NCBI GenBank assembly: GCA_040349255.1
Contig: JBEQUE010000005.1
Location: forward strand, 2,746 to 66,745
Source: Acidobacteriota bacterium
GTDB taxonomy: Bacteria; Acidobacteriota; Thermoanaerobaculia; Multivoradales; UBA5704
Direction: 5' to 3'
Length of the DNA stretch: 64,000 bases
The position numbers were made by a program, and so were the translations under genes. This document shows positions 2,790 to 60,634 of the stretch, one piece after another. The notes under the pieces are model-generated. The model made no database searches. It saw only the letters and a list, made by a program, of their open reading frames with translations, and was not told where the DNA came from. The first letter of the stretch is position 1. Every line of letters starts with the position of its first letter.

Positions 2790-3358
2790 GTCACGTCAAT
2801 CCTGAAATAATCCGACAACCGGTCCCGGAGATGCTGCCTCGCCTGATACAGGTGCGCCTTCACCGTCTCGATGGAGACCTCCATCTCCTCCGCGATCTCA
2901 CGATACTTCATATCGCTGGTCACGCGCAGCATGACGGCCTTCTTCATCTGGGGAGGCAGTTCCTCCAGAGCCTCCCGGAGAAGCCGGGAGCGCTCCTCGG
3001 ACAACATCGACTCCAACGCATCCTCATCACTCTCCGGGTCGCTCGCGTCGGTCGAGTCCAGAGAGACTTCCTCGGCGTCGCGCTTCTGAGCCGCCTGGCT
3101 CCGAAGGGTGTTCTTGTACAGGTTGTTCGCGATCTGAAACAGCCAGGTGACCAGGCTGCTGTCACCCCGGAACCCCTGTCTGTATTTATAGACCCGGAAG
3201 AATGTCTCCTGGGCTAGATCGCGGCTCTCTTCCGTTGAAAATCCCTTGTTCTGGAAGAAGGCCACCACCGGACGGTAGTACCTCCGGAAAAGCTCTTCGG
3301 AAGCTTCCGGCGCGCGATCCTCGGGGTCATCCGGGACGAGGTCGTCCGTCATGGCCAT
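2786..3358 (-). CDS. ECF-family RNA polymerase sigma-70 factor
   Basis: Region 2 (LAQETFFRVYKYRQGFRGDSSLVTWLFQIANNLYKN) and region 4 HTH (MKYREIAEEMEVSIETVKAHLYQARQHLRDRL). Confidence 0.9.
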   Translation of the reverse strand: MAMTDDLVPDDPEDRAPEASEELFRRYYRPVVAFFQNKGFSTEESRDLAQETFFRVYKYRQGFRGDSSLVTWLFQIANNLYKNTLRSQAAQKRDAEEVSLDSTDASDPESDEDALESMLSEERSRLLREALEELPPQMKKAVMLRVTSDMKYREIAEEMEVSIETVKAHLYQARQHLRDRLSDYFRIDVT

Positions 3359-3517
3359 CCTTATGTCTCCATCTGGAGAAAAACTTCGTGTCCCATCCTA
3401 GCCATTCCGGAACTCCGCGACAAGGGCCGGTTGGCACACATCATGAACCGTCCTCCTTCGCCGCCCGGGTGAAAGCGAGCGGCCCGCAGAGACACTTGAC
3501 TGACGAGGAGGTCCACC

Positions 3518-4261
3518 ATGGAGAAGCGTCTCGACGGCAAGATTGCCATCATCACCGGCGCGGGCACCGGCATCGGAGAGGCCATCGCGCACAAGTTCGC
3601 CAAGGAGGGGGCCACGGTCATCCTCAACGGTCTGCCGGGCGATCCCATCGAAGAGGTGGCTTCGGCCATCCGGAAGCACGGCGCCACCGCTCTCACCTAT
3701 GCCGGCGACGTGTCCCAGGAGCGCCATGCCCAGGCGATCGTCCAGCTCACGGTGGACCGCCTGGGACGGCTCGACGTCCTGATCAACAATGCCGGGTACG
3801 TCCCGGCGGTCTTCGCGACGCAGGAGGACATCGACACCCTCGTCCGGGCCAACATCCGGAGCGTGTTCCTGATGGCCCGGTACGCCCTGCCCCATCTCCG
3901 GCAGAGCCGCGGCAACATCGTGTCCGCCGGGTCCGAGTCCGGGGGCACCAAGAGCTGGATCCACTCCTTCATGCACGGCGTCGCCGTCGAGGAGGCCAGG
4001 CACGGGGTGCGCGCCAACTGCGTCTGCACCGGGGCGGTCGACACGGCCTGGGCCGGCCGCGGCACGCCGGAGGAGATCGCGAACGTCTACGCCTTCCTGG
4101 CCTCGGACGAGGCCAGCTATGTCACCGGCGCACTGTGGGTGGTGGACGGCGGGGTCACGGTCGCCAAGGGCGCCATTGCCAAGGAGGAGACGCCGAAGGA
4201 GCTACGGAAGGTCACTCCGGAGCCGACGGCGGCTCCGGAGCCGGTGACAGTGCGAAAGTAA
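3518..4261 (+). CDS. Short-chain dehydrogenase/reductase (SDR) family protein, atypical
   Basis: TGAGTGIG cofactor motif, NNAG, and a C-terminal FLASDEASYVTGALWVVDGG. No recognisable YxxxK, and a ~30-aa Pro/Glu/Thr-rich tail. Confidence 0.75.
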   Translation: MEKRLDGKIAIITGAGTGIGEAIAHKFAKEGATVILNGLPGDPIEEVASAIRKHGATALTYAGDVSQERHAQAIVQLTVDRLGRLDVLINNAGYVPAVFATQEDIDTLVRANIRSVFLMARYALPHLRQSRGNIVSAGSESGGTKSWIHSFMHGVAVEEARHGVRANCVCTGAVDTAWAGRGTPEEIANVYAFLASDEASYVTGALWVVDGGVTVAKGAIAKEETPKELRKVTPEPTAAPEPVTVRK

Positions 4262-4273
4262 GTCTTCGGGCCT

Positions 4274-4897
4274 TTACTTCGGCGCCGGCGCCGCGGCTTC
4301 CTGGCGGTCCGACTCGACCGAGATGCTGACCTTCACGTCGTCGCCCAGGATCGCGCCGCCCGTGTCGAGCGCCCGGTTCCAGGTGATGCCGAACTCCTTG
4401 CGGTCCAGCTTGAAGGCGGTCTCGAAACCGGCCTTCTCGCCGCGCGGGGTCTTGACCGAGCCCAGGACGTCCACCTGGATCGTCGTCTTCTTCGTGACGC
4501 CCTTGATGGTCATGTCGCCCGTCACCTCCAGGGTGTCGGCGTCCACGGCCTTGACCGAGGTGCTCGTGAAGGACCAGGTGGGGAACTTCTCCACGTCGAA
4601 GAAGTCGGGCGAGCGCAGGTGGTTGTCGCGGTCGTCGTTGTCGGTGTCGATCGACTTGGCCTGGACGGTGAAGCTGACGCTCGACGCCGCCGGGTTCGCC
4701 TTGTCGTACTTGATCGTGCCGTCGAAGTCCTTGAAGCGGCCGGACACGTTGCTGACGAAGTGCCGGATGGTAAAGCCGACGCCGCTGTGGTCGGGATCCA
4801 CCTTGTAGACCACCGGATCGGCTGAAGCCGCTGTTGCGAAGAGACCCGGGAGCAGGAGAGCGAGGGACAGGGCCTGGATGAAAGCTTTGGGCTTCAA
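4274..4897 (-). CDS. YceI-family periplasmic (polyisoprenoid-binding-like) protein
   Basis: Signal peptide followed by YKVDPDHSGVGFTIRHFVSNVSGRFKDFDGTIKYD and the typical YceI ending (ITWNRALDTGGAILGDDVKVSISVE). Confidence 0.85.
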   Translation of the reverse strand: MKPKAFIQALSLALLLPGLFATAASADPVVYKVDPDHSGVGFTIRHFVSNVSGRFKDFDGTIKYDKANPAASSVSFTVQAKSIDTDNDDRDNHLRSPDFFDVEKFPTWSFTSTSVKAVDADTLEVTGDMTIKGVTKKTTIQVDVLGSVKTPRGEKAGFETAFKLDRKEFGITWNRALDTGGAILGDDVKVSISVESDRQEAAAPAPK

Positions 4898-4933
4898 GTT
4901 CGGTTCCTCCGGAAATTTGGCAGCCGCACTCTA

Positions 4934-7636
4934 TCAGACCAGCAGTGCGTAGGGTTTCTCGGGGTCGATCCCCAGCTCCCCGATGGCCTTGCGGGCTGCC
5001 GCGGCGTCGATCTCGCCGCGCTTCGCGAGCTCGGCCAGGGCGGCGGCGGCCACGCTCTCGGCGTCCACCTCGAAGAAGCGGCGCAGGGCCTCGCGGGTGT
5101 CGCTGCGGCCGAAGCCGTCGGTGCCCAGGGGGTGGAACCGGCCCGGCAGCCAGCGGGCGATCTGGTCGGGGACCAGCTTCATGTAGTCGGTCACCGCGAG
5201 GATCGGCCGGTCGTCGCCCTCGAACAGCGAGACCACGTACGGCTTGCGCGGCTCCTCGCCGGGATGGAGACGGTTCCAGCGCTCGGCTTCGAGCGCGTCC
5301 CGCCTCAGCTCCTTGTAGCTCGTGGCGCTCCAGACCTCGGCGGCCACGCCGAAGCGCTCGGCCAGGATCTGCTGCGCCCGCAGCGCCTCGCGATGCAGCG
5401 AGCCGCTGCCCAGGAGGTGGACCTTCGGTTTGTCCTCGGTCCCCTCCAGAACGCCTTTGAACTTGTAGAGCCCCTTGAGGATACCCTCGCGGCAGTCGGG
5501 CGAGGGGAGCGGCGGCATCGGGTAGTTCTCGTTGGTCAGGGTGATGTAGTAGAAGATGTCCTCCCGGTCCTTGTACATCCGCCGCAGGCCGTCCTCCAGG
5601 ATGACCGCGATCTCATAGGCATAGGCCGGGTCGTAGGCCAGGAGGTTCGGCACCACGCTCGCGAGCACCAGGCTGTGGCCGTCCTCGTGCTGGAGCCCCT
5701 CGCCGTTGAGCGTCGTGCGGCCGGAGGTGGCGCCGAGCAGGAAGCCGCGCGCCCGCTGGTCCGCCGCGGCCCAGATGAGGTCGCCCACGCGCTGGAAGCC
5801 GAACATCGAGTAGAAGATGAAGAACGGGATGGCGTCGATGCCGTGCGTGGCGTACGAGGTGCCGGCGGCGATGAAGGACGCCATGGAGCCGGCCTCGGTG
5901 ATGCCCTCCTCCAGGATCTGGCCGTTCGTGGCCTCGCGGTAGTAGAGCAGCATGCTCTTGTCCACCGGCTCGTAGAGCTGGCCCACGTGCGAGTAGATGC
6001 CGAACTGGCGGAAGAGCGACTCCATGCCGAAGGTGCGCGCCTCGTCCGGCACGATCGGCACCACCTTGGGGCCGATCTCCTCGTCCTTGAGGAGCTGGGT
6101 GAGCATCTGGACGAACACCATGGTGGTGGAGACGTCGCGGTCCACGCCGGTGTAGTAGCGCTCCCAGGTGCTGGACGCGGGCTGCGGCAGCGGCTCCTTG
6201 CGCACCCGGCGGCTCGGCACGGAGCCGCCCAGCGCGCGGCGGCGCTCCTGGAGGTACTGGATCTCGGGGCTGTCGTCCGCCGGCCGGTAGAACGGGATGT
6301 CGTGCAGATCCTTGTCCGGGATCGGGATGTCGAAGCGGTCGCGGAAGAAGCGCAGCTCGTCCTCGTTGAGCTTCTTCTGCTGGTGGGTGACGTTGCGCCC
6401 CTCGCCGGCCTCGCCGAGGCCATAGCCCTTGACGGTCTTGGCCAGGATGACCGTGGGCGAGCCGGTGTGCTCCACCGCGGCCTTGAACGCGGTGTAGACC
6501 TTGACCGGGTCGTGGCCGCCGCGGCGCAGCTCGTGGAGCTGCTCGTCGGTGTAATTCTTGACCAGCTCCGCCAGCTCGGGGTGCTTGCCGAAGAACTCGC
6601 GGCGGATGTAGTCGCCACCCTCGACGGTGTACTTCTGGAACTCGCCGTCGAGGGTCTCGTTCATGCGCTGGATGAGGAGGCCGGTGTTGTCGGCCTCGAT
6701 GAGGGGATCCCAGTCGGAGCCCCAGATGACCTTGATGACGTTCCAGCCGGCGCCGCGGAAGTTGGTCTCCAGCTCCTGGATGATCTTGCCGTTGCCGCGC
6801 ACGGGTCCGTCGAGGCGCTGCAGGTTGCAGTTGATGACGAAGATCAGGTTGTCGAGCTTCTCGCGGGCGGCGAGGCTGATGGCGCCGAGCGACTCGGGCT
6901 CGTCGGTCTCGCCGTCGCCCAAAAACGCCCAGATCTTGCGGTTCTGGGGGTCGCGCAGGCCGCGGTCGCGCAGGTAGCGGTTGAACTTGGCCTGATAGAT
7001 GGCGGTGATCGGTCCCAGGCCCATGGAGACGGTGGGGAACTCCCAGAAGTCGGGCATGAGCCAGGGATGGGGATAGGAGGCGAGGCCGCCGCCGGTCTCC
7101 AGCTCGCGGCGGAAGGCCTCCATGCGCTCGATCGGGATGCGCCCTTCGAGGAAGGCGTTGGCGTAGATGCCCGGCGAGGCGTGGCCCTGGATGTAGAGCA
7201 TGTCGCCGTCGAAACCGCCTTCGCCGCGTCCCTTGAAGAAGTGGTGCAGGCCGACCTGGTAGAGGGTGGCGGCGGAAGCGTAGGTGGAAATGTGGCCGCC
7301 CAGGCCGGCGAAGCGCTTGTTGGCGCGCACCACCATGGCCATGGCGTTCCAGCGCACGAGGCTCTTGATCTTGCGCTCGACGGCGCGGTCGCCGCCGTAG
7401 GCCGGCTCCTTGTCCCTGGGGATCGTATTGATGTACGGCGTGTTGCCGGTGAACGGGAGGGTGACGTTCTTCTCGTAGCCTTTCTCCAGCAGTTTCTTGA
7501 GGAGGAAGCAGGCGCGGTCGTGCCCTTCGATCTCGACCACCTGCTCGAAGGCGGTCAGCCACTCCTCGGTCTCCTGGACGTCGGCGTCCTTGCCCCCCGT
7601 GTACCAGTTCAGCGGGGTCCTGAACTCCTCGCTCAT
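4934..7636 (-). CDS. aceE: Pyruvate dehydrogenase E1 component, homodimeric type
   Basis: 900 aa. Has the N-terminal DADVQETEEWLTAFEQVV, the ThDP motif GDGETDEPESLGA...NCNLQRLDGPVRGNGKI, and a transketolase-like C-half. Confidence 0.95.
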   Translation of the reverse strand: MSEEFRTPLNWYTGGKDADVQETEEWLTAFEQVVEIEGHDRACFLLKKLLEKGYEKNVTLPFTGNTPYINTIPRDKEPAYGGDRAVERKIKSLVRWNAMAMVVRANKRFAGLGGHISTYASAATLYQVGLHHFFKGRGEGGFDGDMLYIQGHASPGIYANAFLEGRIPIERMEAFRRELETGGGLASYPHPWLMPDFWEFPTVSMGLGPITAIYQAKFNRYLRDRGLRDPQNRKIWAFLGDGETDEPESLGAISLAAREKLDNLIFVINCNLQRLDGPVRGNGKIIQELETNFRGAGWNVIKVIWGSDWDPLIEADNTGLLIQRMNETLDGEFQKYTVEGGDYIRREFFGKHPELAELVKNYTDEQLHELRRGGHDPVKVYTAFKAAVEHTGSPTVILAKTVKGYGLGEAGEGRNVTHQQKKLNEDELRFFRDRFDIPIPDKDLHDIPFYRPADDSPEIQYLQERRRALGGSVPSRRVRKEPLPQPASSTWERYYTGVDRDVSTTMVFVQMLTQLLKDEEIGPKVVPIVPDEARTFGMESLFRQFGIYSHVGQLYEPVDKSMLLYYREATNGQILEEGITEAGSMASFIAAGTSYATHGIDAIPFFIFYSMFGFQRVGDLIWAAADQRARGFLLGATSGRTTLNGEGLQHEDGHSLVLASVVPNLLAYDPAYAYEIAVILEDGLRRMYKDREDIFYYITLTNENYPMPPLPSPDCREGILKGLYKFKGVLEGTEDKPKVHLLGSGSLHREALRAQQILAERFGVAAEVWSATSYKELRRDALEAERWNRLHPGEEPRKPYVVSLFEGDDRPILAVTDYMKLVPDQIARWLPGRFHPLGTDGFGRSDTREALRRFFEVDAESVAAAALAELAKRGEIDAAAARKAIGELGIDPEKPYALLV

Positions 7637-10659: not shown

Positions 10660-12417
10660 ATGAGCGCCAACTCCGGCAATCTTCTCTTCAATACGGTCAG
10701 CTACAACGTCGGTTCACTGCTCGACCAGATCGATCTGGGCAGTGTCGGCCTGCCGGATATCCAGCGGCCGTTTGTCTGGAAGAATGCGAAAATCCGCGAT
10801 CTCCTGGACTCGATGTACCGCGGCTTCCCCGTAGGTTATCTCCTGTTCTGGCAGAACGACCATGCCGAAGGATCGAGGGGCATCGGCGTCGACGGCAAAC
10901 AGAGGCACTCAAGCCTCCTCATCGTCGACGGGCAGCAGCGGTTGACGTCGCTCTACGCAGTCATCAGGGGAAAGAAGGTCCTCCGTGAGGACTACAGCGA
11001 AGAACACATCGAGATCGCGTTCCACCCTCTGGACGAGAAGTTCGAGGTGGCCGACGCCGCGATCCGCAAGGACAAGCACTGGCTGCCGAACATCTCGCGG
11101 CTCTGGTCGTCCGACACCGACCTGTTCGAGCTCGTGGACGAGTATCTCGAAGGACTGCGGCACACGCGGGAGCTCAGCACCGACGAAACCAGAAGATGCC
11201 GACAGAACATCAAGAGGCTCCAGGGTCTCGTAAACTACCCTTTCCAAGCTCTGGAGCTTCTGGCAACAGCCAGCGAGGAACAGGTCAGCCATGTGTTCGT
11301 CCGTATCAACAGCAAGGGGCAGCGGCTGAACGAGGCGGACTTCATCCTCACGCTGATGTCGGTTTACTGGGATGAAGGACGGCACGACCTCGAGCGGTTC
11401 TCGCGCGCAGCCAAGAAGTCCGACAAGAAACCTGGGCCCTACAACCACTTCCTCCAGCCCGCGCCGGACCAGTTGCTGCGGGCAGCGATCGGCTACGGCT
11501 TCAAGAGGGGACGGCTGCAATACGTCTATTCCCTCCTGCGCGGCAAGGATCTGGAAACAGGCAAGTTCAGCGAGGAGCACCGGGAAGCGCAGTTTGCCCG
11601 CCTGAAGGAGGCGCAGGCGGGCGCACTCAACCTCCAGCACTGGAAGGATTTCCTCAAGTGCCTGATGCATGCCGGCTTCCGCAGCGGCAAGGTCATCACC
11701 TCCGAGACCACCGTGCTCTACAGCTACGTGTTCTACCTGCTCGGCCGGGCCGAATACAAGATTTCGGAGAGCGCGTTGCGGCGGACCATCGCGCGCTGGT
11801 TCTTCTTCGCGAGCCTCACCGGCCGCTACACGAATTCGCCCGAATCGGCCCTGGAGAGCGACCTCATCCAGCTCCGGGAGGTGAGCGACGCTGCCGGGTT
11901 CAAGGCGCGCCTCGACCGCAACATCGAGGCGCAGCTCACGGACGACTTCTGGCGCGTGACCCTGCCGAGCGACCTTGACTCGGCCGCGGCGCGCAGCCCT
12001 TCCCTGATGGCCTACATCGCGGCGCTGTGCCTGCTGGATGCGAAAGTCCTGTTTTCCAGGCTGAGCGTGAGCTCCCTGCTCGACCCGACCACGGACGCGT
12101 ACAGGAACTCGCTCGAAAGGCATCACCTCTTCCCCAAGGACTGGCTGAAGAAACATGGCTTTCCGGACGTCCAGAAAACCAACCAGATCGCCAACTACGC
12201 CCTGCTCGAATGGCCGGACAACTCCGACATCTCCGCGCACTCTCCCGCGGAGTACTGGCCGCAGTTCAAGAACCGCTACTCTGCCGCGGAGTGGCGCACG
12301 ATCCGCTACTGGCACGCGCTGCCCGAGCAGTGGGAGACGATGAAGTACGAGGAGTTCCTGAAGAAGCGCCGGGGCCTCATCGCCAAGGTCGTCCGCGACG
12401 GATTCGAAAGGATCTGA
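10660..12417 (+). CDS. DUF262/DUF1524 protein, GmrSD-like (Type IV restriction family)
   Basis: N-terminal ParB-like DUF262 motifs (LPDIQRPFVW, LLIVDGQQRLTSL). C-terminal His-Me/HNH-like DUF1524 region (LERHHLFPKDWL ... NQIANYALLEWPDNSDIS). The upstream intergenic DNA is visibly lower in GC. Confidence 0.8.
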   Translation: MSANSGNLLFNTVSYNVGSLLDQIDLGSVGLPDIQRPFVWKNAKIRDLLDSMYRGFPVGYLLFWQNDHAEGSRGIGVDGKQRHSSLLIVDGQQRLTSLYAVIRGKKVLREDYSEEHIEIAFHPLDEKFEVADAAIRKDKHWLPNISRLWSSDTDLFELVDEYLEGLRHTRELSTDETRRCRQNIKRLQGLVNYPFQALELLATASEEQVSHVFVRINSKGQRLNEADFILTLMSVYWDEGRHDLERFSRAAKKSDKKPGPYNHFLQPAPDQLLRAAIGYGFKRGRLQYVYSLLRGKDLETGKFSEEHREAQFARLKEAQAGALNLQHWKDFLKCLMHAGFRSGKVITSETTVLYSYVFYLLGRAEYKISESALRRTIARWFFFASLTGRYTNSPESALESDLIQLREVSDAAGFKARLDRNIEAQLTDDFWRVTLPSDLDSAAARSPSLMAYIAALCLLDAKVLFSRLSVSSLLDPTTDAYRNSLERHHLFPKDWLKKHGFPDVQKTNQIANYALLEWPDNSDISAHSPAEYWPQFKNRYSAAEWRTIRYWHALPEQWETMKYEEFLKKRRGLIAKVVRDGFERI

Positions 12418-12511
12418 GGCCGACGCCTGAGGCTGGCGGCAATGGGCACAACCCGGCCCCGAGGTGTGCGGAGCACCCCTGGTGCCCCGCACACCTCCGG
12501 CAGCCCACCTC

Positions 12512-12598
12512 TCCCTACAGGCAGGCTCCGGGGCGGGACGGCGGCAGCCTTGGACACGGTGGCCGCCGTCCCTCTCAATTGTCAAGGAACCATGGTTC
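12512..12598. repeat. Inverted-repeat element, left copy (contains an 11-bp GC hairpin and a GAAC-CATG-GTTC palindrome)
   Basis: Region 12535-12596 matches the reverse complement of 13303-13363 at roughly 85 percent identity by hand alignment, with weaker similarity and an indel further out. The hairpin is GGGACGGCGGC (12535-12545) paired to GCCGCCGTCCC (12562-12572) with a 16-nt loop. It is followed by AGGAACCATGGTTCTT. Confidence 0.6.
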
Positions 12599-12900
12599 TT
12601 CCCGAGTGGCCAGGAAGAAGAGCCCGCTGAAGCAGTTCTTTTACGAGCCACCCGGGCAACACGTTCATGATACGCGGGCCGGCTCTGTTTTGAGCCTACC
12701 CTTTCAAAAAGGCACAAAAGTGCCCAAAACGACCCTCCAGAAAACAGAGCGAGCTCCAATCAAACGGGCACGAAATTGGTCTGGCCCGGTTTGTCACAAA
12801 ACAGGGGCCTCCGGCAACTATATATAGAGGACACCGGAATGCCGGGTCCGAAGGACTCCGAGGCGGCCAGATGTGCCGATCTGGCATGAGACAACACCTG

Positions 12901-13221
12901 GGAACCTTCTACGAGACGACGGAACGTTCTACGAGCCAAGGGAACGTTCTATATCAGAATGCAAGGTTCTATGAGCCGACGCAACGTTCTATGACGAAAT
13001 GGAAGGTTCTACGAGCCCCTGGAAGGTTCTACGGCGAAATGGAAGGTTCTACGAGCTGGCGGAACGTTCTACGGAGGAAATGGAAGGTTTTATGAGCCGA
13101 TGGAACGTTCTACACCGAAATGGAAGGTTCCAGGAGCCGATAGAACGTTCTATGCCGGAACGCAAGGTTCTACGGGCCGATGGAACGTTCTACGCCGAAA
13201 TACAACCTTCCGCTGCGATAA
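12901..13221. repeat. Phased tandem array 1: 16 units of 20 bp (one of 21), core GGAA[C/G]GTTCTAYG
   Basis: Units start at 12901, 12921, 12941, 12961, 12981, 13001, 13021, 13041, 13061, 13082, 13102, 13122, 13142, 13162, 13182 and 13202 (the last is degenerate). The right half shows a 40-bp A/B super-repeat (GGAAGGTTCTAYGAGCCGAT + GGAACGTTCTAYGCCGAAAT). The core GAACGTTC is palindromic. Confidence 0.9.
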
Positions 13222-13302
13222 ATCGGCCTCCCCGGCCGCAGGCAAGGTAACGGATCGGCAGGCTGGCTCGTAGAAGGACTCTGTAGGGATAGTCGTAAGG
13301 TT

Positions 13303-13393
13303 TCATGGTTCCTTGACAATCGAGAGGAATGGCGGCTGCCGGGTCCAAGGCCGCCGCCGTTCCGAACTGTTTCACCGGCCGGCGGGCATGTAG
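13303..13393. repeat. Inverted-repeat element, right copy
   Basis: Reverse-complement match to 12512-12598. The hairpin is GGAATGGCGGC (13326-13336) paired to GCCGCCGTTCC (13353-13363), with a 16-nt loop sharing GTCCAAGGC with the left copy. One stem position shows a compensatory change relative to the left copy (G-C to A-T). Confidence 0.6.
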
Positions 13394-13606
13394 CTGACGC
13401 CGAGCGGTCCGCTGATCTTCCAGGCGGCGGGCGCGGCGCCAAGGCGACACTCGCTCGCCGAATGCGACAGGATTTCCCTGGGAGACCTCGTCATCCAGGT
13501 GGCCAATCCCAGGATGTTGTACCGTATGAAGAAGGACACGGTCCGGTTGCAGGATCGCGCCGACGCGGCCCGGATTCGTGAGGCGTTCAATCTGGAAGAC
13601 GACTGA
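13394..13606 (+). pseudogene. Possible 3' remnant of a nucleotidyltransferase-like gene
   Basis: The open frame after stop 13391 reads ...ECDRISLGDLVIQVANPRMLYRMKKDTVRLQDRADAARIREAFNLEDD*. This resembles only the C-terminal tail of small NTase-fold proteins (vaSlEDLI.MK..tgR.kD..D). There is no N-terminal domain, and the frame abuts the right inverted repeat. Its stop overlaps the next ATG (TGATG). Confidence 0.35.
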
Positions 13607-13827
13607 TGTCTGTCCGCAAATACCGATCCGTGAACGACATGCCGGGGGCCCGTCCCCTGCCGCCGCTCGATCCGGAGAACCTGCGCATCGCGTGCGAGCT
13701 GACCGAGCTCGCCTACGCCCTCCACCCCTGGAAGCTCGAGCCCGGGGTCCGCAAGTTCCGCTCCGCCGAGGAAGCTCAACAGCACAGGCAGGAATGGGAG
13801 AAGCGCCAGGTCCGCGCCAAACGTTGA
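13606..13827 (+). CDS. Hypothetical small protein (73 aa)
   Basis: ORF MSVRKYRSVNDMPGARPLPPLDPENLRIACELTELAYALHPWKLEPGVRKFRSAEEAQQHRQEWEKRQVRAKR. Codon usage looks genuine and it is coupled to the upstream remnant. No domain recognised. Confidence 0.45.
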   Translation: MSVRKYRSVNDMPGARPLPPLDPENLRIACELTELAYALHPWKLEPGVRKFRSAEEAQQHRQEWEKRQVRAKR

Positions 13828-13871
13828 ATCGATGGAGGCAGCCTCGGGCCGGGCCGCTCTTCGGATATGCA

Positions 13872-14612
13872 TCATGGATGCAGAACGCGAACGGTCACCT
13901 CCTCGGCCGGCTCGGAGGAGGCCCGGCCGGCCAGGCGAAGCCGGATCTCTCCCGCCGGGAGCAGGCTCCGGGGCAGGAGGACGCGGACGGTGCCGGAGTC
14001 GGAGAGCAGACCGTCCAGGACACCGGTCGGGCGGCCGGACGCGTCGAGGATCTCCAGCCGCAGGCCGGTCTCCGTCTGGAGCCGGGCGGAGTTGAGGATC
14101 AGGGCTATGCCGACCGCCGGTACGCGGATCTCCCGGGGAGGCTCGGGCCCGCGGTGGACGCCCGGCATGTCGACGACCTCCAGGGGCAGGTTGGGGATGG
14201 CCCGCGGCGAGAGGCTCCAGAAGGACAGGGCCACGGCCGCCAGCAGGGACGCGGCGGCGAACGCGTAGGCCGTACGGAGCGAGGCGAGGACCGGCGGCAG
14301 CCGCCAGCCCGCAGGCTGCGGAGGCCGCGTCTGAGGCTCGGCGAAGATCTGTCTTCGCAGCTCCTGCCAGGAGACGGCCACGTCGATGCCGGTCTCACCC
14401 TGGACGGGCTCCAGGAACTGCTCCAGATCGAGGAGCAGGTCCGGGCAGTCGAAGCAGACGCCGAGATGCCGGCAGACACGGGCGGCGCGACGGGCGGAGA
14501 GCCGGCCGTCGCGCCAGGCGGTGAGCTCCTCGGGAGACGGGTGCCAGCCGGCCTCGGGACCGAGGCGCTCCTCGCGGCCGAGGAGGCGGAAGGCGAGGGC
14601 GAGGTCCGTCAT
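13872..14612 (-). CDS. Anti-sigma factor (zinc-finger-like N-terminus, one TM helix)
   Basis: CRHLGVCFDCPDLLLDLEQF motif and the TM segment AYAFAAASLLAAVALSFWSL. Lies directly downstream of an ECF sigma gene. Confidence 0.7.
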   Translation of the reverse strand: MTDLALAFRLLGREERLGPEAGWHPSPEELTAWRDGRLSARRAARVCRHLGVCFDCPDLLLDLEQFLEPVQGETGIDVAVSWQELRRQIFAEPQTRPPQPAGWRLPPVLASLRTAYAFAAASLLAAVALSFWSLSPRAIPNLPLEVVDMPGVHRGPEPPREIRVPAVGIALILNSARLQTETGLRLEILDASGRPTGVLDGLLSDSGTVRVLLPRSLLPAGEIRLRLAGRASSEPAEEVTVRVLHP

Positions 14613-40092: not shown

Positions 40093-42816
40093 ATGGCCCT
40101 GCACCCCGGATTTCCCTCTTCACCCTACGACCTGCTGATCCCCGAGCACCGCTGGTTTCCGGCCGCCGAGGAGCTCCGGGCGACCGCCTACGAGAAGCTC
40201 CTGCCGCCGCTCGTGGCCCGGATCCGGACGGAGGTCGCGTCCTGGCGCGCCGCCGGGTACGCCGGCGCGTCCGCGACCTCGCGCGCCCTGCTCGCCTGGT
40301 GGTTCGAGCGCGAGCACCGGACCGAAGGGCCCGGAGGCGCGCAGAGCCTGTTCCGCTACTACTTCGCGCAGCGCGAGGCGGTCGAGACGGTCGTCTGGCT
40401 CCACGACGTCCGCGGCGTGCGCGACAGGTTCGACCTCCTGCGCTTCGACGCCTCGGGCGCCGTCTCCACCGGGATGTTCGACGAGGAGTGGCCGCGCTAC
40501 GTCGTCAAGATGGCCACGGGCGCGGGCAAGACCAAGGTCCTCGCGCTGCTCCTCGCCTGGAGCTACTTCCACCGGCTCTACGAGCCCGCCTCGACGCTGG
40601 CCCGGAACTTCCTCGTCATCGCGCCGAACATCATTGTCCTCGACCGCCTGCGCACCGACTTCGACGGCCTGCGGATCTTCTTCCGCGACCCCGTTCTGCC
40701 GCCGAACGGCTACGAGGGCAGGAGCTGGAGCGAAGACTTCCAGGTGGCGCTCCACCTGCAGGACGACGCGCGGGTGCTCCGGCCGACCGGCAATCTCTTC
40801 CTGACCAACATCCACCGCGTCTTCCTCGGCGACACCGCCGAGCCTTCGCCCGAGGACGACGACCTGCGCGACTACTTCCTCGCCCCGTTCGGACCGAAAC
40901 CCGTCGGCAAGACCTCCGACAGCCGGACCGACCTCGGCGAGATCGTCCGCGAGATCGACGAGCTGGCGATCTTCAACGACGAGGCCCATCACATCCACGA
41001 CGCCCGGCTCGCCTGGTTCCGGAGCCTCCAGGACATCCATCACCGCATGCTCCAGCGCGGCCGCTCCCTGTCGCTGCAGCTCGACCTGACGGCCACGCCG
41101 CGGCACGACAACGGCGCGATCTTCGTCCAGACCGTCTCCGACTACCCGCTGGTCGAAGCCATCCACCAGAACGTCGTGAAACACCCCGTACTGCCGGACG
41201 GCCCGAGCCGGGCGCGGCTCCACGAGCGGAAGAGCGCCATCTTCACCGAACGGTACGCCGACTACCTCGCTCTCGGCGTCGAGGAATGGCGCAAGAGTTA
41301 CGCCGAGCACGAGGCGCTCGGGAAGAAGGCGGTCCTCTTCGTGATGGTCGACGACACCCGCAACTGCGACGAGGTCGGCGCCTACCTGGAACGGATCTGC
41401 CCCGAGCTCCAGGAAGCCGTCCTGGTCATTCACACCAAAAACAACGGCGAGATCTCCGAGTCCGCCTCCGGCAAGAGCGTCGAGGAGCTGGACAGGCTCC
41501 GGCGAGCGGCCCATCAGATCGATACCTGGCAGAGCCCGTACAGGGCCATCGTGTCGGTGCTCGTGCTTAAGGAAGGCTGGGACGTCCGCAACGTGACCAC
41601 CATCGTGGGGCTCCGGGCCTACAGCTCGAAGAGCAAGATCCTCCCGGAGCAGACCCTGGGCCGCGGGCTCCGGCGGATGTACTTCGGCAGCGGGGCCCCG
41701 GAGACCGTCTCGGTCCTCGGCACGCCCGCGTTCATGGATTTCGTCGAATCCATCCAGACCGAGGGCGTGGTCTTCGAACGCGTGCCGATGGGCCCGGGGG
41801 CCGACCGGGCGGAGTCCCTGATCGTCGAGATCGATCCCGACAAGACAAAGGATTTCGAAGCGCTCGACATCTTCCTGCCCCGCCTGACCCGCCGCTACCA
41901 TCGCGCGTTCAAGGATCTCGATGCCCTGGACCCGGCGGACCTGGGCAATCCCCGGCTGGCCTTGAAGCCGTTCCGGCCCGAGGAGACGCGGGAGATCGTG
42001 TTCAGGACCATGCTCGAAGGAGAGGTCCATCACACCCTCCGCCTGGAAGGCTCCGGGCCGGCGGACTACCGCTCGGTGGTCGCCTTCTTCGCCCGGCAAC
42101 TGCTGCGGGAGATGCGGCTCGTCGGCGGCTACGACGCGCTCTACGGCCAGGTGAAGCGCTTCCTGCGCGACCACCTGTTCGAGGGCGGGCCCGCCGACCT
42201 CGAGGACCCGGTCGTGCTGCGGAACCTGTCCGAGCCCGAGCCGGGCAAGATCCTCTTAGACGCCTTCCGGAAAGCGATCAACGCGCTCACGCTGGAGGAG
42301 CGCGGCAGCGCCGCGGTCGAGGACTGGATCCGGGTCCGCGACACCCGCCCGTTCCGCACCGAGCCGCGGCCGTATCTCGTCCCGCGAAGGTCGCTCTTCA
42401 CGAAGATCGTCGGCGAGCCGCGCGCCGGCGGGCTGGAGCTCGAATTCGCCGCCTTCCTCGACCGCGCGCCCGGCGTGGCGGCCTTCGCCAAGAACTATTT
42501 CGCGGTCGGCTTCCAGCTCGACTACGTCAAGGCAAACGGCGACCTGTCGAGCTACGTGCCGGACTTCCTGGTCAGGACCGAGGACGGGACGGTCTTCGTG
42601 ATCGAGACCAAGGGCCGCGAGGAGATCGATCTGCCTCCGAAGATGAGGCGCCTGCGCCAGTGGTGCGCCGACGCCACTGGGGCCAGCCGGGCTGCCGGTG
42701 GCCCGGACTATCGCTTCGTCTACGTCGACCAGGCCGGCTTCCAGTCGCATCGGCCCGCGACCTTCGCCGGCCTGGTCGAAACCTTTCGGGAGTACCAGGG
42801 GGAGTACCAGGAATGA
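40093..42816 (+). CDS. res: Type III restriction enzyme Res subunit (SF2 helicase + PD-(D/E)xK nuclease)
   Basis: Walker A KMATGAGKTKV, DEAH box IFNDEAHHI, helicase C motifs (VLKEGWDVRNV), and a C-terminal nuclease motif SYVPDFLVRTEDGTVFVIETKGRE. Confidence 0.9.
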   Translation: MALHPGFPSSPYDLLIPEHRWFPAAEELRATAYEKLLPPLVARIRTEVASWRAAGYAGASATSRALLAWWFEREHRTEGPGGAQSLFRYYFAQREAVETVVWLHDVRGVRDRFDLLRFDASGAVSTGMFDEEWPRYVVKMATGAGKTKVLALLLAWSYFHRLYEPASTLARNFLVIAPNIIVLDRLRTDFDGLRIFFRDPVLPPNGYEGRSWSEDFQVALHLQDDARVLRPTGNLFLTNIHRVFLGDTAEPSPEDDDLRDYFLAPFGPKPVGKTSDSRTDLGEIVREIDELAIFNDEAHHIHDARLAWFRSLQDIHHRMLQRGRSLSLQLDLTATPRHDNGAIFVQTVSDYPLVEAIHQNVVKHPVLPDGPSRARLHERKSAIFTERYADYLALGVEEWRKSYAEHEALGKKAVLFVMVDDTRNCDEVGAYLERICPELQEAVLVIHTKNNGEISESASGKSVEELDRLRRAAHQIDTWQSPYRAIVSVLVLKEGWDVRNVTTIVGLRAYSSKSKILPEQTLGRGLRRMYFGSGAPETVSVLGTPAFMDFVESIQTEGVVFERVPMGPGADRAESLIVEIDPDKTKDFEALDIFLPRLTRRYHRAFKDLDALDPADLGNPRLALKPFRPEETREIVFRTMLEGEVHHTLRLEGSGPADYRSVVAFFARQLLREMRLVGGYDALYGQVKRFLRDHLFEGGPADLEDPVVLRNLSEPEPGKILLDAFRKAINALTLEERGSAAVEDWIRVRDTRPFRTEPRPYLVPRRSLFTKIVGEPRAGGLELEFAAFLDRAPGVAAFAKNYFAVGFQLDYVKANGDLSSYVPDFLVRTEDGTVFVIETKGREEIDLPPKMRRLRQWCADATGASRAAGGPDYRFVYVDQAGFQSHRPATFAGLVETFREYQGEYQE

Positions 42817-44930
42817 CCCGCCCGCGAGCCCCGAAGCACCACGACGCGCTCTCCGACGCCGAGAAGCGCGACCTGATCGAGCTGATCCAGCAGGGCAAGC
42901 CGCTGCCCGAGCGGTACCGCTTCCTGCTCTTCGAGGACAAGCGCGAGGTGGAGCTGGTCTGGAACGGCAAGACGCGGGACGTCTGCACGACCGTGCTCCC
43001 CTTCCAGAGCCTGGAGCACGTGGACGAGCCGCGCGAGGAGACGCGGGCGCAGCAGGAGCTTTTCGATTCCCGCGGGCGGCAGCTCGCGGGCTGGACCAAC
43101 AAGCTGATCTGGGGCGACAACCGGCTGATCCTCTCGTCTCTGAAGAGCGGACCCCTGCGCGAGCAGATCGAGGAGGCCGGCGGCCTCAAGCTCATCTACA
43201 TCGATCCGCCCTTCGACGTCGGCGCCGACTTCTCCATGGACATCGAGATCGGCGGCGAGACCTTTCACAAGGAGCCCAACCTCCTCGAGCAGATCGCCTA
43301 CCGCGACACCTGGGGCCGCGGCGCCGACAGCTTCATCAGCATGATCTCGGAGCGCCTGATCCTCATGCGGGACCTGCTGGCCGACGACGGCACTATCTTC
43401 GTGCACTGCGACTGGCGCGTGAGCGGCTACCTGCGCCTGGTGCTCGACGAGATCTTCGGCCGTGAGTCCCTCCGCAACCACATCCTGTGGCTTTACAGCG
43501 GAGGGGGCATCCCGACCACGGAGATGCCGAAGAAGCACGACGACATCTTCTGGTATTCGAAAGGCGACCGCTGGCAGTACAACCCGGTCTACAGGAATTA
43601 CTCCGAGGGGACGATGCAGCGCGGCCGGACCGCCGTCAAGGGAGAGAACGCGGCGCTCCGGAGCGAAGGCACGCCGATCAACAACTGGTGGCCCGACGTC
43701 AAGAAGATCACCAGCCCCACCGATCCGGAAAAGCTTTACTATCCGACCCAGAAATCCGAGGAGCTGCTCGAGCGCGTGATCACGCTCGCCAGCCGGAAGG
43801 GCGACCTGGTCGCCGACTTCTTCTGCGGCTCCGGCACCACCGCGGCCGTGGCAGAAAAGCTGGGGCGCAAGTGGATCGCCGTCGATCTCGGGAAGTTCGC
43901 CGTCCACACCACGCGCAAGCGGCTGATCGGCGTGCAGCGGGAGCTCAAGGAGCAGGGCAAGCCGTTCCGGGCGTTCGAGGTGCTGAACCTGGGACGGTAC
44001 GAGCGCCAGGCCTATCTCCACGTCGGCGGACGTCTCACGCCGGAGCAGCGCGAGCAGGCGCTGGCGGCGAAGGAACGCGAGTTCCGCGAGCTGATCCTGC
44101 GGGCCTACAAGGCGCAGCCGCTCGAAGAGGCCTCGTTCTTCCACGGCCGGACCGCGGGGCGGCTCGTCGTCGTCGGCCCGATCAACCTCCCCGTCGGCCG
44201 CCTGTTCGTCGAGGAGGTCATCACCGAGTGCCGCAAGCGCGGCGCCACGCGGGTGGATCTGCTCGCCTTCGAGTTCGAAATGGGACTCTTTCCCGCGGTC
44301 CTCCAGGAGGCGCGGCAGAAGGGCATCGATCTCACCCCCAGGTACATTCCGGCGGAGGTCTTCGACAAGCGCGCCGTGGACCGGGGCCAGGTCGTCTTCT
44401 TCGACATCTCCTTCATCGAAGCGACGCCGCGCCACGACTCCCGGAACCGGTTCGCCCTCAAGATCGAGCTGACCGACTTCTCCGTTCACTACAACCAGGG
44501 CCAGGCCGAGGACCTCGTCAAGGCCATCCGGGAAGGTAAAAACGACGTCCTCTGCGAGCAGGGCCAGCTCGTCAAGGTGACGAAGGACCGGAACGGAGTC
44601 GTCGCGCGCGAGGTGCTGACCCGGACATGGACCGACTGGATCGACTACTGGGCCGTGGACTTCAACTACGAGAGCCGCAAGGAGATCATCCGGGTGCCCA
44701 GAGGCCAGGGCCAGGACGACTCCGGAAACGCCGAGCTCGAGGACCGCTGGACCGGCGGCTACCTCTTCGAGAACGAATGGCAGAGCTTCCGCACGCGGAA
44801 GAACCGCGAGCTCGAGCTCCTCACCGCCCGGCATCTCTACGACCGGCCCGGCCGCTACACCGTGGCCGTCAAGGTGATCGACATCTTCGGCAACGACACC
44901 ATGACCCTCGTGCCGGTCAACATCGGCTGA
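42812..44930 (+). CDS. mod: Type III R-M Mod subunit (N6/N4 DNA methyltransferase, beta class)
   Basis: Motif IV IYIDPPF and motif I DLVADFFCGSGTTAAVAEKLGRKWIAVD. The ATG at 42812 overlaps the res stop (ATGA). The N-terminal part of track ORF 42660..44930 is an out-of-gene extension. Confidence 0.9.
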
Positions 44931-44940
44931 ACAAGGGCTT

Positions 44941-45380
44941 CTCCACCACAACGTTGCCTCGTTCACCGCAACGTCGGCTTCTCCACCGCAACTCAAGCTT
45001 ACGTTGCGGTGAAGAAGGTGAAGTTGCGGCAACTCAAAACGTATTCACCGCAACCCGGGCTTGTTCACCGCAACCTAACGATACTTTGCCGCAACGTCGC
45101 TTTCTTCACCGCAACCTTACTCCATTTTGCCGCAAACTGGAGATATTCACCGCAACGTCGTCTTCTTCACCGCAATTCAAGCTTCTCTGCTGCAACTCAA
45201 GGCGAAATTGCCGCAACGTCTCCTTGTTCACCGCAACGTCATGTTCTTCACCGCAACGCCGGCTTCTCTGCCGCAACGCCGCCTTGTCTGCCGCAACCTG
45301 CTCCCAGGTTGCGGCAAAACCCGGAGATGCGGCGAGTCGCCTCGGTTTCTGCCGCAACTTGCGGAGATTTGCCGCAACCT
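44941..45380. repeat. Phased tandem array 2: about 21 units of 20-21 bp, core (T)TCACCGCAAC / (T)TGCCGCAAC(GTC)
   Basis: Eighteen direct cores end at 44952, 44972, 44992, 45054, 45074, 45095, 45115, 45136, 45156, 45176, 45196, 45217, 45237, 45257, 45277, 45297, 45358 and 45378. Three inverted cores (GTTGCGG) lie at 45003, 45023 and 45307 and keep the same phase. The array starts about 10 nt after the mod stop and ends about 20 nt before the next ATG. Confidence 0.9.
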
Positions 45381-45397
45381 CATGATATCCTCCCTGC

Positions 45398-45904
45398 ATG
45401 AGCTCGAAGCTGTCGGTGGAGCAGATCCTGGCGAACCTGTCGCAGCGCGCGGCCCTTCATCGCAACAAGGAAGCCTTCCACGCACAGCAGGAGATCCATC
45501 ACCGGGAGCAACGGGCGCTCCATGCCGCCGAGCTCGCCAAGGTGGAGCAAAGCCTGGAGGCCCTTCAGGCCGTCGTGCCGTCCGCGATCGAGCTCGCCGC
45601 TCCGGTCCGGACCTCGCCGGCTCCGGCGATCTCGCAGGTAGCCCTGCCGGCCGAGGGACGCCTGATGGTCAGCCGGTTGCTGCGGCAGATCGCCCTGAGC
45701 CCCGACCTGGCCGAGCCGTTCGGCCCGACCTCGCTGGTCGCGGCGGCCAATCGCGCCTTTGCGGACCGCCTGCCCCGGCCGGTCGGACCGAGGACGGCTT
45801 CGGACGTGCTGCGCCGCATGCTCGCCGCCGGCGAGATCCAGCTCGCCCGCGACGGCAAGGCGTTTCACGAAGCCCTGTACGTCCGGAGGCCCGGGAAGGG
45901 CTGA
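45398..45904 (+). CDS. Hypothetical protein (168 aa), helical N-terminus, possible winged-helix-like C-terminus
   Basis: The ORF lies just downstream of array 2. The N-terminal part has a coiled-coil-like composition. The C-terminal ASDVLRRMLAAGEIQLARDGKAFHEALYVRR resembles a wHTH recognition helix plus wing. There is no SD, and no family was recognised. Confidence 0.5.
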   Translation: MSSKLSVEQILANLSQRAALHRNKEAFHAQQEIHHREQRALHAAELAKVEQSLEALQAVVPSAIELAAPVRTSPAPAISQVALPAEGRLMVSRLLRQIALSPDLAEPFGPTSLVAAANRAFADRLPRPVGPRTASDVLRRMLAAGEIQLARDGKAFHEALYVRRPGKG

Positions 45905-58054: not shown

Positions 58055-59493
58055 TGCGCATTTGCCAGGTCGCGGCGGAGGTGGCTCCGTTCGCCAAGAC
58101 AGGCGGGCTGGGCGACGTGGTCGGAGGCCTGTCGGCGTACCTCGGCCGCGCGGGCCACGATGTCCGCATCGTGATGCCGTTCTACGGCCAGCTCGCGCGG
58201 CGGCCGGAGACTTTCATCCCGGTGGACTTCATCCAGCGCGTGCCGATCCCGATGGGCGGCCGGCTGTTCTCGGTCTCGGCGCTCACCTGCAAGCTGCCCG
58301 GCAGCGACGTGGACGTCTATTTCGTCTCCTGCCCCGAGCTCTATGCGCAGGAAGGGATCTATCACGGCGACGGGTCAGACGGAGTCCGCTTCGGCGTGCT
58401 CACCCGGGCCGCGTTCGAGCTCTGCCAGCGCATGGGCTGGGGCCCGGACGTCGTCCACTGCCACGACTGGCACACCGCGCTCGCGCCGGTCTATCTCAAG
58501 GCGCTGTACGACTGGGACCGGCTGTTCGACCGCACGCGGACCGTGCTGACGATCCACAACATGGCCTTCCAGGGCTATCTGTCCGCCGGATACGTGAACG
58601 ATCTCGGCCTCGGGAAGCATGGCTGGATGCTGGACACCGCGGGCGGGGCCTTCAACGTGCTCAAGAACGGGTTGATCCACGCCGACGCGATCACGGCCGT
58701 GAGCCGCACCTACGCCCGCGAGATCCAGGGCGACCAGGGCTTCGGCCTGGACTGGCTGCTGCGGGCGCGCGCGGACCGGCTGTTCGGCATCGTCAACGGC
58801 GTGGACTACGGCGAGTGGGATCCGCAGCGCGATCCGCACCTGCCGTTTCACTACTCCGCCGACGACCTCGCGGGCAAGCGGGAGATGAAGCGGACGCTCC
58901 TCAAGGAGACCGGGATCGGGGAGGGGGATCTCGAAACGCCGATCGTCGGAATCGTCTCGCGCCTGACTGCTCAGAAAGGTTTTGAATTGGGCTTCGACGT
59001 CCTGCCGGCCCTTCTGGCACGGCGGAACTTCCGCCTGATCGCGCTCGGCAGCGGCGAGCCGAAGTACGAGGACTTCTTCCAGTGGCTCCAGTGGCGCTTC
59101 GCGGGCCGGGCCTGGTTCTACCGCGGCTTCCACAACCCGCTCGCGCACTGGATCGAGGCGGGTGCCGACCTCTTCCTGATGCCGTCGCGCTTCGAGCCCT
59201 GCGGCCTGAACCAGATGTACAGCCTGCGCTACGGCACGCCGCCGATCGTCCGGAAGACCGGCGGCCTGGCCGACACGGTCGAGCCCTGGAACGCGCAGAC
59301 CGGCCAGGGCACCGGCTTCGTCTTCGAGCACTTCGACGCCGAAGGGCTACGCTGGGCTCTGGACACGGCGCTCGACGCCTGGGAGGACCGCGCCTCCTGG
59401 GGCCGCCTCATGCGCAACGGCATGGAGAAGGACTACTCCTGGGACGTGCAGGGCCGGGAGTACGAAGAGCTCTACCGGCGGTTCGCGGGATAG
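58054..59493 (+). CDS. glgA: Glycogen synthase (ADP-glucose type)
   Basis: MRICQVAAEVAPFAKTGGLGDVV and PSRFEPCGLNQMY. The ATG overlaps the glgC stop (TGATG). It is only the last 479 codons of track ORF 56263..59493. Confidence 0.95.
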   Translation: MRICQVAAEVAPFAKTGGLGDVVGGLSAYLGRAGHDVRIVMPFYGQLARRPETFIPVDFIQRVPIPMGGRLFSVSALTCKLPGSDVDVYFVSCPELYAQEGIYHGDGSDGVRFGVLTRAAFELCQRMGWGPDVVHCHDWHTALAPVYLKALYDWDRLFDRTRTVLTIHNMAFQGYLSAGYVNDLGLGKHGWMLDTAGGAFNVLKNGLIHADAITAVSRTYAREIQGDQGFGLDWLLRARADRLFGIVNGVDYGEWDPQRDPHLPFHYSADDLAGKREMKRTLLKETGIGEGDLETPIVGIVSRLTAQKGFELGFDVLPALLARRNFRLIALGSGEPKYEDFFQWLQWRFAGRAWFYRGFHNPLAHWIEAGADLFLMPSRFEPCGLNQMYSLRYGTPPIVRKTGGLADTVEPWNAQTGQGTGFVFEHFDAEGLRWALDTALDAWEDRASWGRLMRNGMEKDYSWDVQGREYEELYRRFAG

Positions 59494-59519
59494 AGGGGCG
59501 CAGACGTCTGCGCCCCTCC
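59494..59519. terminator. Bidirectional intrinsic-terminator-like hairpin between glgA and the convergent Cys-rich gene
   Basis: GAGGGGCGCAGAC-GTCTGCGCCCCTC is a perfect 26-nt GC-rich palindrome directly after the glgA stop. The flanks are only weakly T-rich. Confidence 0.6.
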
Positions 59520-59856: not shown

Positions 59857-59975
59857 AGGCTCCTTTCCGTGAGGAATCAGTCCTCACGCATAGCAGTATA
59901 TCTACGAGGTCGAACGCCTGAAGTTGCGAAAGCATGGCGAGCCCGGAGGGCGCTCCGGGCTCGCCGGGCTTCCGG

Positions 59976-60278: not shown

Positions 60279-60387
60279 CGGGATCTCCTTCGAGCGACCC
60301 GGAAGGGATCATTCCCTTCGAGAAGACCGCAATCTTAGCAAGTGGCTATCCGCTCATCCAGAGATCCGGACGTCGCCCGAGATGCGG

Positions 60388-60600: not shown

Positions 60601-60634
60601 GACAACCTCAACGGAACACCCAGAGAGCAGTAAG

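Follow-up and report, generated by a model that had tools for sequence, protein, structure and literature searches.

Direct repeats of about 20 bp that are phased near two helical turns are a hallmark of iterons and of parC/tubC-type centromeres, and to our knowledge a dedicated multi-site array architecture has until now been known mainly from plasmid iterons and centromeres. We analysed an array with this layout, array 1, in a stretch of 64,000 nucleotides from an Acidobacteriota bacterium (GenBank assembly GCA_040349255.1, contig JBEQUE010000005.1, positions 2,746 to 66,745; this whole stretch is called the window hereafter). An initial annotation of the same DNA had likened the array to those of plasmid iterons and centromeres while seeing no rep or par gene close by; iteron and centromere arrays are indeed its nearest architectural analogue, and Pfam searches of the neighbouring open reading frames (ORFs) found no rep or par gene. 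Our preferred reading, to which we give a probability of roughly one half, is that array 1 is an orphan member of a family of dispersed, non-coding arrays specific to its lineage, and that it acts as a helically phased platform for protein binding. The array itself can be described as follows:

12901-13221, plus strand: array 1, 16 units made of the core GGAAsGTTCTAyG and a 7-bp spacer, with A/B alternation

The extent given in the initial annotation was borne out: the units run head to tail and measure 20 bp each, except for a single unit of 21 bp. Tandem Repeats Finder reports a period of 20 over 12901-13194 (14.6 copies) and a period of 40 over 12921-13201 (7 copies, 78% match). Read from the sequence, the units start at 12901, 12921 and so on up to 13202; the 21-bp unit is the one at 13061 and the last unit is degenerate. 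The alternation of A units (GGAAG...AGCCGAT) with B units (GGAAC...CCGAAAT) had been assigned to the right half of the array; it is real but not confined to that half, since it spans 12921 to 13201. Autocorrelation peaks at lags of 20 (0.60), 40 (0.68) and 60 (0.54), against a median of 0.24. When up to two mismatches are allowed, GGAAsGTTCTAyG has 17 matches within array 1 and 2 in the rest of the 64 kb, and none of 100 shuffles reached these 19 matches (2.5 expected). Two further features had been pointed out and hold: the 20/21-bp period places the sites about two helical turns apart, and the core is partly palindromic, which is compatible with a dimeric binder.

Array 1 had also been taken to be non-coding, and several observations agree with this. 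The reading frame rotates along the array because the period is 20 bp, and each unit carries a TAG on the minus strand. GC content is about 0.5 at all three codon phases and stays flat over 12510-13300, whereas the genes of this region have a GC content at third codon positions (GC3) of about 0.9; array 1 lacks this codon-phase signal and is therefore non-coding. Overall, its GC content is 0.51, compared with 0.68 for the window. The earlier rejection of clustered regularly interspaced short palindromic repeats (CRISPR) was equally sound. CRISPR consist of repeats of about 23-50 bp and unique spacers of similar length, and they usually come with cas genes, whereas array 1 has 20-bp units with about 7 semi-conserved spacer bases of two alternating types; Pfam searches of the ORFs neighbouring array 1 and array 2 (a second array, see below) found no cas domains.

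Two other functions were considered and rejected. An uptake-sequence or Chi-like role is unlikely because the window contains no excess of the array motifs beyond the arrays themselves: GTTCTA occurs there at about chance level (9 observed, 9.9 expected). A role as promoters for an extracytoplasmic function (ECF) sigma factor might be suggested by the resemblance of GGAAC to the -35 element of such promoters and by the presence of an ECF sigma/anti-sigma pair 1.4 kb away; judged by the sequence, this idea is ruled out, as no -10-like element lies 16-17 bp downstream in the 20-bp register. A scan of the window for tRNA and tmRNA genes found none.

Relatives of array 1 were sought with a query of three GTTCTAYG cores spaced by 20 bp, run against one genome for each GTDB species. 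This returned 37 loci, against a chance expectation of about 0.1 in random sequence, a figure to be read with the caveat that unrelated tandem arrays may carry the motif by chance. Acidobacteriota account for 21 of the 37. Nine loci come from a single metagenome-assembled genome (MAG), Thermoanaerobaculia SMAG_U7022; all nine belong to the same 20/21-bp family as array 1 and contain 9-27 units each. The other 12 are from further Acidobacteriota, and most of these are (GGTTCTACGG)n arrays with a 10-bp period, often in inverted pairs. All array loci are intergenic, lying between ORFs. The neighbours of the SMAG_U7022 arrays include SecDF, OmpA, a VWA protein, UPF0047, CBS, glyoxalase and tetratricopeptide repeat (TPR) genes, as well as an amino-acid permease, a LysM transglycosylase, a Ser/Thr kinase and a sigma-54 activator. 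Placement varies: the arrays face 3' ends and 5' ends of genes, in both orientations. No leader or trailer sequence common to all arrays was found.

What is shared is the core. Among 10 array consensuses, positions G1, A3, A4 and C17, which lie outside the search pattern, are invariant, and the spacers differ from array to array; the family can thus be described by a conserved core, G-AA-s-GTTCTA-y-G, and an array-specific spacer. The period is shared more widely still. Four tandem arrays were met in Thermoanaerobaculia DNA without having been selected for their motif (the two window arrays, L053 and L055), and all four have a period of 20-21 bp with at least three different cores. Such a period corresponds to about two helical turns, and that of the 10-bp arrays of other classes to one.

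The 10-bp-period arrays form a phenomenon of their own. In MAGs of Vicinamibacterales and of unclassified Acidobacteriota, (GGTTCTACGG)n arrays are dispersed at several loci per genome (L007, L008, L010, L017, L021, L025, L027, L029, L031 and L032), and their inverted pairs form large imperfect palindromes. In the viral contigs L040, L043, L044, L045, L047 and L048 (IMG/VR), a GGATTC hexamer and a CCGCAACTCG decamer each form a tandem array, and the two arrays lie back to back.

The second array of the window offers a comparison, because it is accompanied by a conserved gene, which we call S1:

44946-45378, plus strand: array 2, 21 CCGCAAC-type sites (18 forward, 3 inverted) with 20/21-bp phasing
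45398-45904, plus strand: S1 gene, coding for 168 amino acids, the conserved partner of array 2

The last site of array 2 lies 26 bp upstream of the S1 ATG. An S1 homologue with 41% identity (E = 1e-33) is encoded in an 8.78-Mb Thermoanaerobaculia genome, where CCGCAA/TTGCGG arrays are again found directly upstream and the last site is again at -26. A metagenome scan added eight S1 loci, seven of them distinct (the upstream sequences of L057 and L058 are identical). An upstream array with 21-bp phasing is present in all 10 loci examined, namely the window copy (45398-45904), L055 and L057-L064. Sites in the metagenomic arrays are separated by 21 bp or a multiple of it (autocorrelation is highest at lags of 21, 42 and 63), and the last site lies 25-35 bp before the ATG in five loci. 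The array core varies with the protein: it is GCCGCAA in most loci, GACGCAA in L061, GTCGCA/GCGACA in L062 and GCTGCAA/TGCAGCA in L063. As an upstream array occurs in all S1 loci and its core co-varies with the protein, we conclude from these sequences that array 2 is most probably the cognate cis-array of S1 and that its position after a Type III mod gene is incidental; it would probably serve as both operator and assembly site for S1. The initial annotation was right about the existence of array 2, but the array belongs with S1 and not with the modification gene. The pair that precedes it is Type III-like (40093-44930) and consists of res (ResIII helicase, 907 amino acids) followed by mod (N6_N4_Mtase, 756 amino acids); their longest ORFs overlap by about 150 bp and the C-terminus of mod is weakly PKD-like.

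The S1 family comprises 290 representatives after clustering at 50% identity, nearly all of 160-175 amino acids, and sequence searches of Pfam, NCBIfam, PHROGs and PDB gave nothing significant. In a single-sequence AlphaFold model, residues 7-59 form one long N-terminal helix, which a disordered linker joins to a C-terminal domain with the order helix-helix-helix-strand-strand, a predicted topology that is possibly compatible with a winged helix, at low confidence.

No gene for a binding protein was found among the genes adjacent to array 1. A candidate came from the related loci in the form of a second small protein, S2, which in SMAG_U7022 has 128-141 amino acids and whose gene follows a GTTCTA array at a distance of 213 bp (L001). 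In L053, which comes from the sample with the syntenic relative of the window, the S2 gene begins at the end of a 21-bp ATAGGTTCCGG array; in L065 and L066, arrays of about 20.5-bp period containing GGAAGCTTCC follow the terminator of the gene. The S2 loci are:

L001, 913-1338: S2 gene
L053, 7055-7415: S2 gene
L065, 4001-4381: S2 gene
L066, 4001-4414: S2 gene
L006, 5654-6058: S2 gene

Four of these five S2 genes thus adjoin an array whose period is about 20-21 bp. The motif AGsTTC occurs 7-12 times in each of three S2-adjacent arrays (about 0.4 expected) and occurs neither in S1 arrays nor in controls. For S2, sequence searches of Pfam, PHROGs, NCBIfam and PDB returned nothing significant, and hhalign detected no homology between S1 and S2. 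The S2 model shows a three-helix bundle followed by a strongly conserved YGxxSEKLxEFGxQPFRGR stretch and a basic, proline-rich tail. A tblastn search found no S2 homologue within the window; the MAG from which the window derives apparently encodes two S2 paralogues elsewhere (MES1243871 and MES1243479, compared with MES1240051), an assignment made because the protein accessions are consecutive. Many S2-carrying contigs are only about 1 kb long, and 20-21-bp arrays probably break short-read assemblies of Acidobacteriota MAGs.

Taken together, these results suggest the following model. Arrays of 9-27 units of 20/21 bp are scattered in the intergenic DNA of Thermoanaerobaculia-type Acidobacteriota, and each, with one partly palindromic site per two DNA turns or so, would offer a multi-site platform. 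A sequence-specific, probably dimeric DNA-binding protein encoded elsewhere would bind array 1 cooperatively, and binding might regulate genes locally, titrate the protein or structure DNA or the chromosome. We infer the binding itself, the identity of the binder and the effect of binding alike. S2 would be the best candidate, since its genes adjoin AGsTTC-core arrays in four genomes; we place it first, with a protein of the XRE helix-turn-helix (HTH) plus TPR type as the putative alternative. Both L053 and L006 bring together an HTH-TPR gene, an array and S2 in a single neighbourhood. HTH-TPR proteins also occur in a multi-copy three-gene cassette of Thermoanaerobaculia, made up of a TPR protein (about 486 amino acids), an ORF of 71-91 amino acids on the opposite strand and an XRE-HTH+TPR protein (about 475 amino acids), which is found in L053-L056 (around 3100-6430 in each) and L024 (1-2024); its layout recalls RNPP-type pairs of regulator and peptide.

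Several observations weigh against a bound platform, or against S2 as the protein that binds it. (i) Conservation in array 1 is 0.87-0.90 for the core and 0.75-0.80 for the spacer, a modest difference. (ii) Most arrays of the family are orphans, so that another protein may bind them, or none. A tandem array can also grow and become uniform while serving no function. (iii) The AGsTTC pattern was picked after the arrays had been viewed. (iv) S2 has no recognisable DNA-binding fold, and a Foldseek search of its model against PDB found nothing with E < 1. (v) At three of the nine SMAG_U7022 arrays the immediate neighbour is the 3' end of one of several diverged XRE-HTH+TPR paralogues, which likewise leaves room for a different binder. 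(vi) For S1, the C-terminal domain is modelled with a predicted local distance difference test (pLDDT) score of 53-71, and Foldseek likewise found nothing with E < 1 in PDB.

A wider version of the model, which we consider rather doubtful, would make S1, and possibly S2, small oligomerising proteins with cognate, co-evolving arrays of about 21-bp phasing, the orphan GTTCTA arrays being landing pads in a system of chromosome organisation or regulatory buffering. If true, this would be a bacterial counterpart of satellite DNA paired with the protein that binds it. Should binding occur as the narrower model proposes, free-living bacteria would keep chromosomal multi-site arrays as platforms for small oligomerising proteins. 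S1 and S2 are two uncharacterised protein families, each with a predicted DNA target that is directly testable. No description of the arrays, S1 or S2 was found in the literature on the repeat sequence, on repeats of Acidobacteria or on Thermoanaerobaculia.

The alternative that survives best is that the arrays are neutral or selfish minisatellites, in which a seed was expanded by replication slippage or unequal recombination and spread together with modules resembling repetitive extragenic palindromic (REP) elements, without any sequence-specific function. This is possible, if not likely, and it draws its strength in part from the immediate surroundings of array 1, which sits in a composite intergenic element of about 830 bp bounded by inverted REP-like hairpin modules that the initial annotation had not seen. 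The parts of this element outside the array are:

12534-12594, plus strand: left flanking module, REP-like, a GC-rich hairpin (12535-12572) followed by TCTCAATTGTCAAGGAACCATG
12634-12665, plus strand: outlying degenerate unit AGTTCTTTTACGAGCC, within the left flank, forming an inverted-repeat pair with 13249-13280
12693-12740, plus strand: second small hairpin GGCACAAAAGTGCC, between the left module and array 1, kept beside the L011 array in a related MAG
12818-12827, no strand: palindrome CTATATATAG, absent from the homologous L011 flank
13249-13280, minus strand: outlying inverted unit AGTCCTTCTACGAGCC (13262-13277), within the right flank
13304-13364, minus strand: right flanking module, an inverted copy of the left one, 87% complementary to it over 61 nt

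In full, a module consists of the GC hairpin, TTGTCAAGGAACCATG and a unit-like CCTTCTACGAGCC, in this order, with copies at 12534-12665 and 13249-13364. Its hairpin is a dispersed REP-like element in the related MAG too, and the module also adjoins the family array L011, on one side only. The AT palindrome CTATATATAG is exactly where the initial annotation had placed it; since it is missing from the homologous flank of the relative, it probably does not help to define the element, as far as the sequences compared can tell. A separate GC hairpin with 20-nt arms lies at 12458-12500, 40 bp past the stop codon of the gene to the left (see below), and is likely a terminator distinct from the REP-like module.

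That the bracketing modules are themselves dispersed, that the family occupies many unrelated intergenic sites, with position and orientation to neighbouring genes inconsistent, and that the syntenic relative L049 lacks the array are all as expected of a minisatellite; A/B super-repeats and those of 61, 81 and 103 bp are typical of arrays homogenised by recombination. However, the core, including its unselected positions, is identical in 10 arrays with diverged spacers, and slippage alone does not predict a 20-21-bp period in all four unselected Thermoanaerobaculia arrays when these have at least three cores. The recurrent adjacency of S2 and S1 genes is also unlikely by chance, and no target-site duplication was found: the outer ends of the modules of array 1 share no direct repeat as long as 7 bp. 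On balance we prefer the protein-binding platform.

It is improbable, in our estimate, that array 1 acts at the RNA level, through a transcript (produced, for example, as a 3' extension of a neighbouring gene) that would function as structured RNA, protein sponge or stabiliser, like CsrB-type RNAs or like REP elements and bacterial interspersed mosaic elements (BIME). The plus strand does fold better than shuffled sequences (z = -5.0), because the palindromic cores of neighbouring units pair; each plus-strand unit has a GGA motif, and 9 of 15 defined family flanks are gene 3' ends. Orientation to the adjacent gene varies, however, being sense in L002, L004 and L009 and antisense in L006, L024 and L036, and the L065 and L066 arrays lie past an intrinsic terminator. 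Rfam 15 gave nothing at the gathering score across the window and nothing at E ≤ 1 in 12400-13650, and a scan for sigma-70 promoters and intrinsic terminators around array 1 found no consensus sites. Periods of 10, 20 and 21 bp fit the helical repeat of DNA, and array 2 and the 10-bp arrays have no GGA motifs.

The proposal of the initial annotation was that the arrays are defence-associated elements that regulate, titrate or act as decoys for the genes of GmrSD and Type III restriction-modification (R-M) systems. Array 1 starts 484 bp past the stop codon (12417) of a GmrSD_N (DUF262) gene at 10660-12417, both arrays of the window adjoin restriction-type genes, and the GmrSD region has a lower GC content (0.60-0.63), as in an acquired island. 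We nevertheless regard the proposal as very improbable. None of the nine SMAG_U7022 arrays has a defence gene among its flanking genes, the same family being found at nine or more loci beside ordinary genes; arrays dispersed regardless of gene context, which the initial annotation had itself set against its proposal, are thus what this genome contains. Orthologues of the window GmrSD gene (80-86% identity) were found in four contexts (L049-L052), and in none of the four does an array lie within 6 kb, not even in L049, which is syntenic with the window (PDH E1, DUF6843, caspase ... lipocalin). Array 2, for its part, follows S1 and not mod, the neighbours of the other S1 loci being a kinase, VapBC, DUF1841 and unknowns, with no R-M genes. 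The association with defence fails because nine related arrays flank unrelated genes and GmrSD orthologues occur without an array. From these sequences, array 1 appears to have no specific relation to the GmrSD gene, and the two window arrays should not be annotated as defence-associated.

GmrSD_N has a history of its own. In L049-L052 the orthologues lie inside type I R-M operons, between hsdS/hsdM and hsdR, and the MAGs concerned carry the labels Verrucomicrobiae and Chlorobaculum; the window gene stands alone, in a patch of low GC content (0.60-0.63). These observations suggest that GmrSD_N is a defence gene that moves horizontally and occupies a variable site, with the caspase gene on one side and the lipocalin gene on the other.

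Least probable of all is that array 1 is a relic of an integrated plasmid, integrative and conjugative element or phage, as its iteron set or partition centromere: the direct repeats of about 20 bp near two helical turns and the AT palindrome 75 bp upstream would fit, but rep, par, integrase and transfer genes are absent within about 10 kb and there is no tRNA gene, SMAG_U7022 has at least nine arrays in one genome, the palindrome is not kept in the homologous L011 flank, and no match was found in PLSDB for the arrays, S1 and S2 or in IMG/VR for S1 and S2.

As to the genes around array 1, Pfam searches of 10 neighbouring ORFs identified caspase, lipocalin, GmrSD_N, an ECF sigma/anti-sigma pair and adenosine deaminase. 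To the right of the array are probable small plus-strand genes and then the anti-sigma/ECF-sigma pair and the adenosine deaminase gene. A minus-strand ORF of 167 amino acids (13372-13875) was considered as an adjacent binder gene and rejected, as it is probably spurious: codon-phase GC, together with homology to the relative, points to small genes on the plus strand instead (from about 13400, and at 13606-13827), and the stretch 13526-13815 has its matches among such genes in L049. The ORF shows no relation to S1. Elsewhere in the window, the minus strand of 59530-60610 contains two small cysteine-rich, secreted-looking ORFs and a possible HicB-like gene (judged by eye), which lie between palindromic terminators at 59493-59518 and 59927-59974.

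Comparison with described systems places the two window arrays differently. The likeness of array 1 to iterons (P1 incA/oriR, RK2, R6K, pPS10) lies in the direct repeats of about 17-22 bp, the two-turn phasing (20/21 bp over 16 units in array 1) and the combination of a conserved core with a variable spacer; cooperative protein binding would be common to both, and incA-type arrays are sinks for their binding protein. The array family differs in having 16-27 units instead of 3-9, in occurring as nine or more arrays per chromosome at unrelated loci, and in having neither a Rep gene nearby nor an origin context: Pfam found no Rep initiator gene among the 10 ORFs neighbouring array 1, at least nine arrays are present in the related genome, and the only AT element is an unconserved 10-bp palindrome.

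Centromere arrays (ParR/parC of R1 and pSK41, TubR/tubC, StbA/stbDR of R388) are closer in layout to array 2 and S1, a pair that recalls the autoregulatory arrays of centromere-binding proteins: in both, a phased array lies upstream of the gene for a small putative DNA-binding protein, and the proximal site overlaps the likely promoter region. The array 2/S1 module is unlike them in being chromosomal and solitary, with no ParA, ParM or TubZ motor gene, and S1 has no detectable similarity in sequence or fold to ParR, TubR or StbA. Array 1 differs further, as no binding-protein gene is adjacent, and no gene for an NTPase motor (ParA, ParM, TubZ) was found near either array. In architecture only, S1 recalls H-NS/Lsr2-type proteins, with a predicted coiled-coil helix, a flexible linker and a small candidate DNA-binding C-terminal domain (at low confidence), a modelled layout which, like theirs, would suit filament formation along DNA; there is no homology, and S1 is paired with a specific repeated motif and not with AT-rich DNA in general.

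Mobile elements offer partial parallels. With regard to miniature inverted-repeat transposable elements (MITEs), array 1 has inverted modules on both sides, whereas L011 has a module on one side only. The inverted termini of Drosophila Foldback (FB) elements consist of tandem sub-repeats of 10, 20 and 31 bp, and related Acidobacteriota loci have inverted pairs of 10-bp GGTTCTAC arrays; this is an analogy only, as FB elements are eukaryotic and no transposase or target-site duplication was found here. The likeness to REP/BIME elements and to the short tandemly repeated repetitive (STRR) sequences of cyanobacteria is that all are lineage-specific, non-coding, multi-copy and intergenic, as the array 1 family proved to be. 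No RAYT-type transposase, such as accompanies REP elements, was seen, although no search aimed at one was made. REP elements are palindromic hairpin units in alternating orientation, compared with 20-bp direct repeats here; STRR sequences are, like the arrays, tandem and made of short units scattered around the chromosome, but their units are heptamers without a core-plus-spacer structure. As a genomic phenomenon, the array family is closest to these dispersed extragenic repeats (REP/BIME, STRR).

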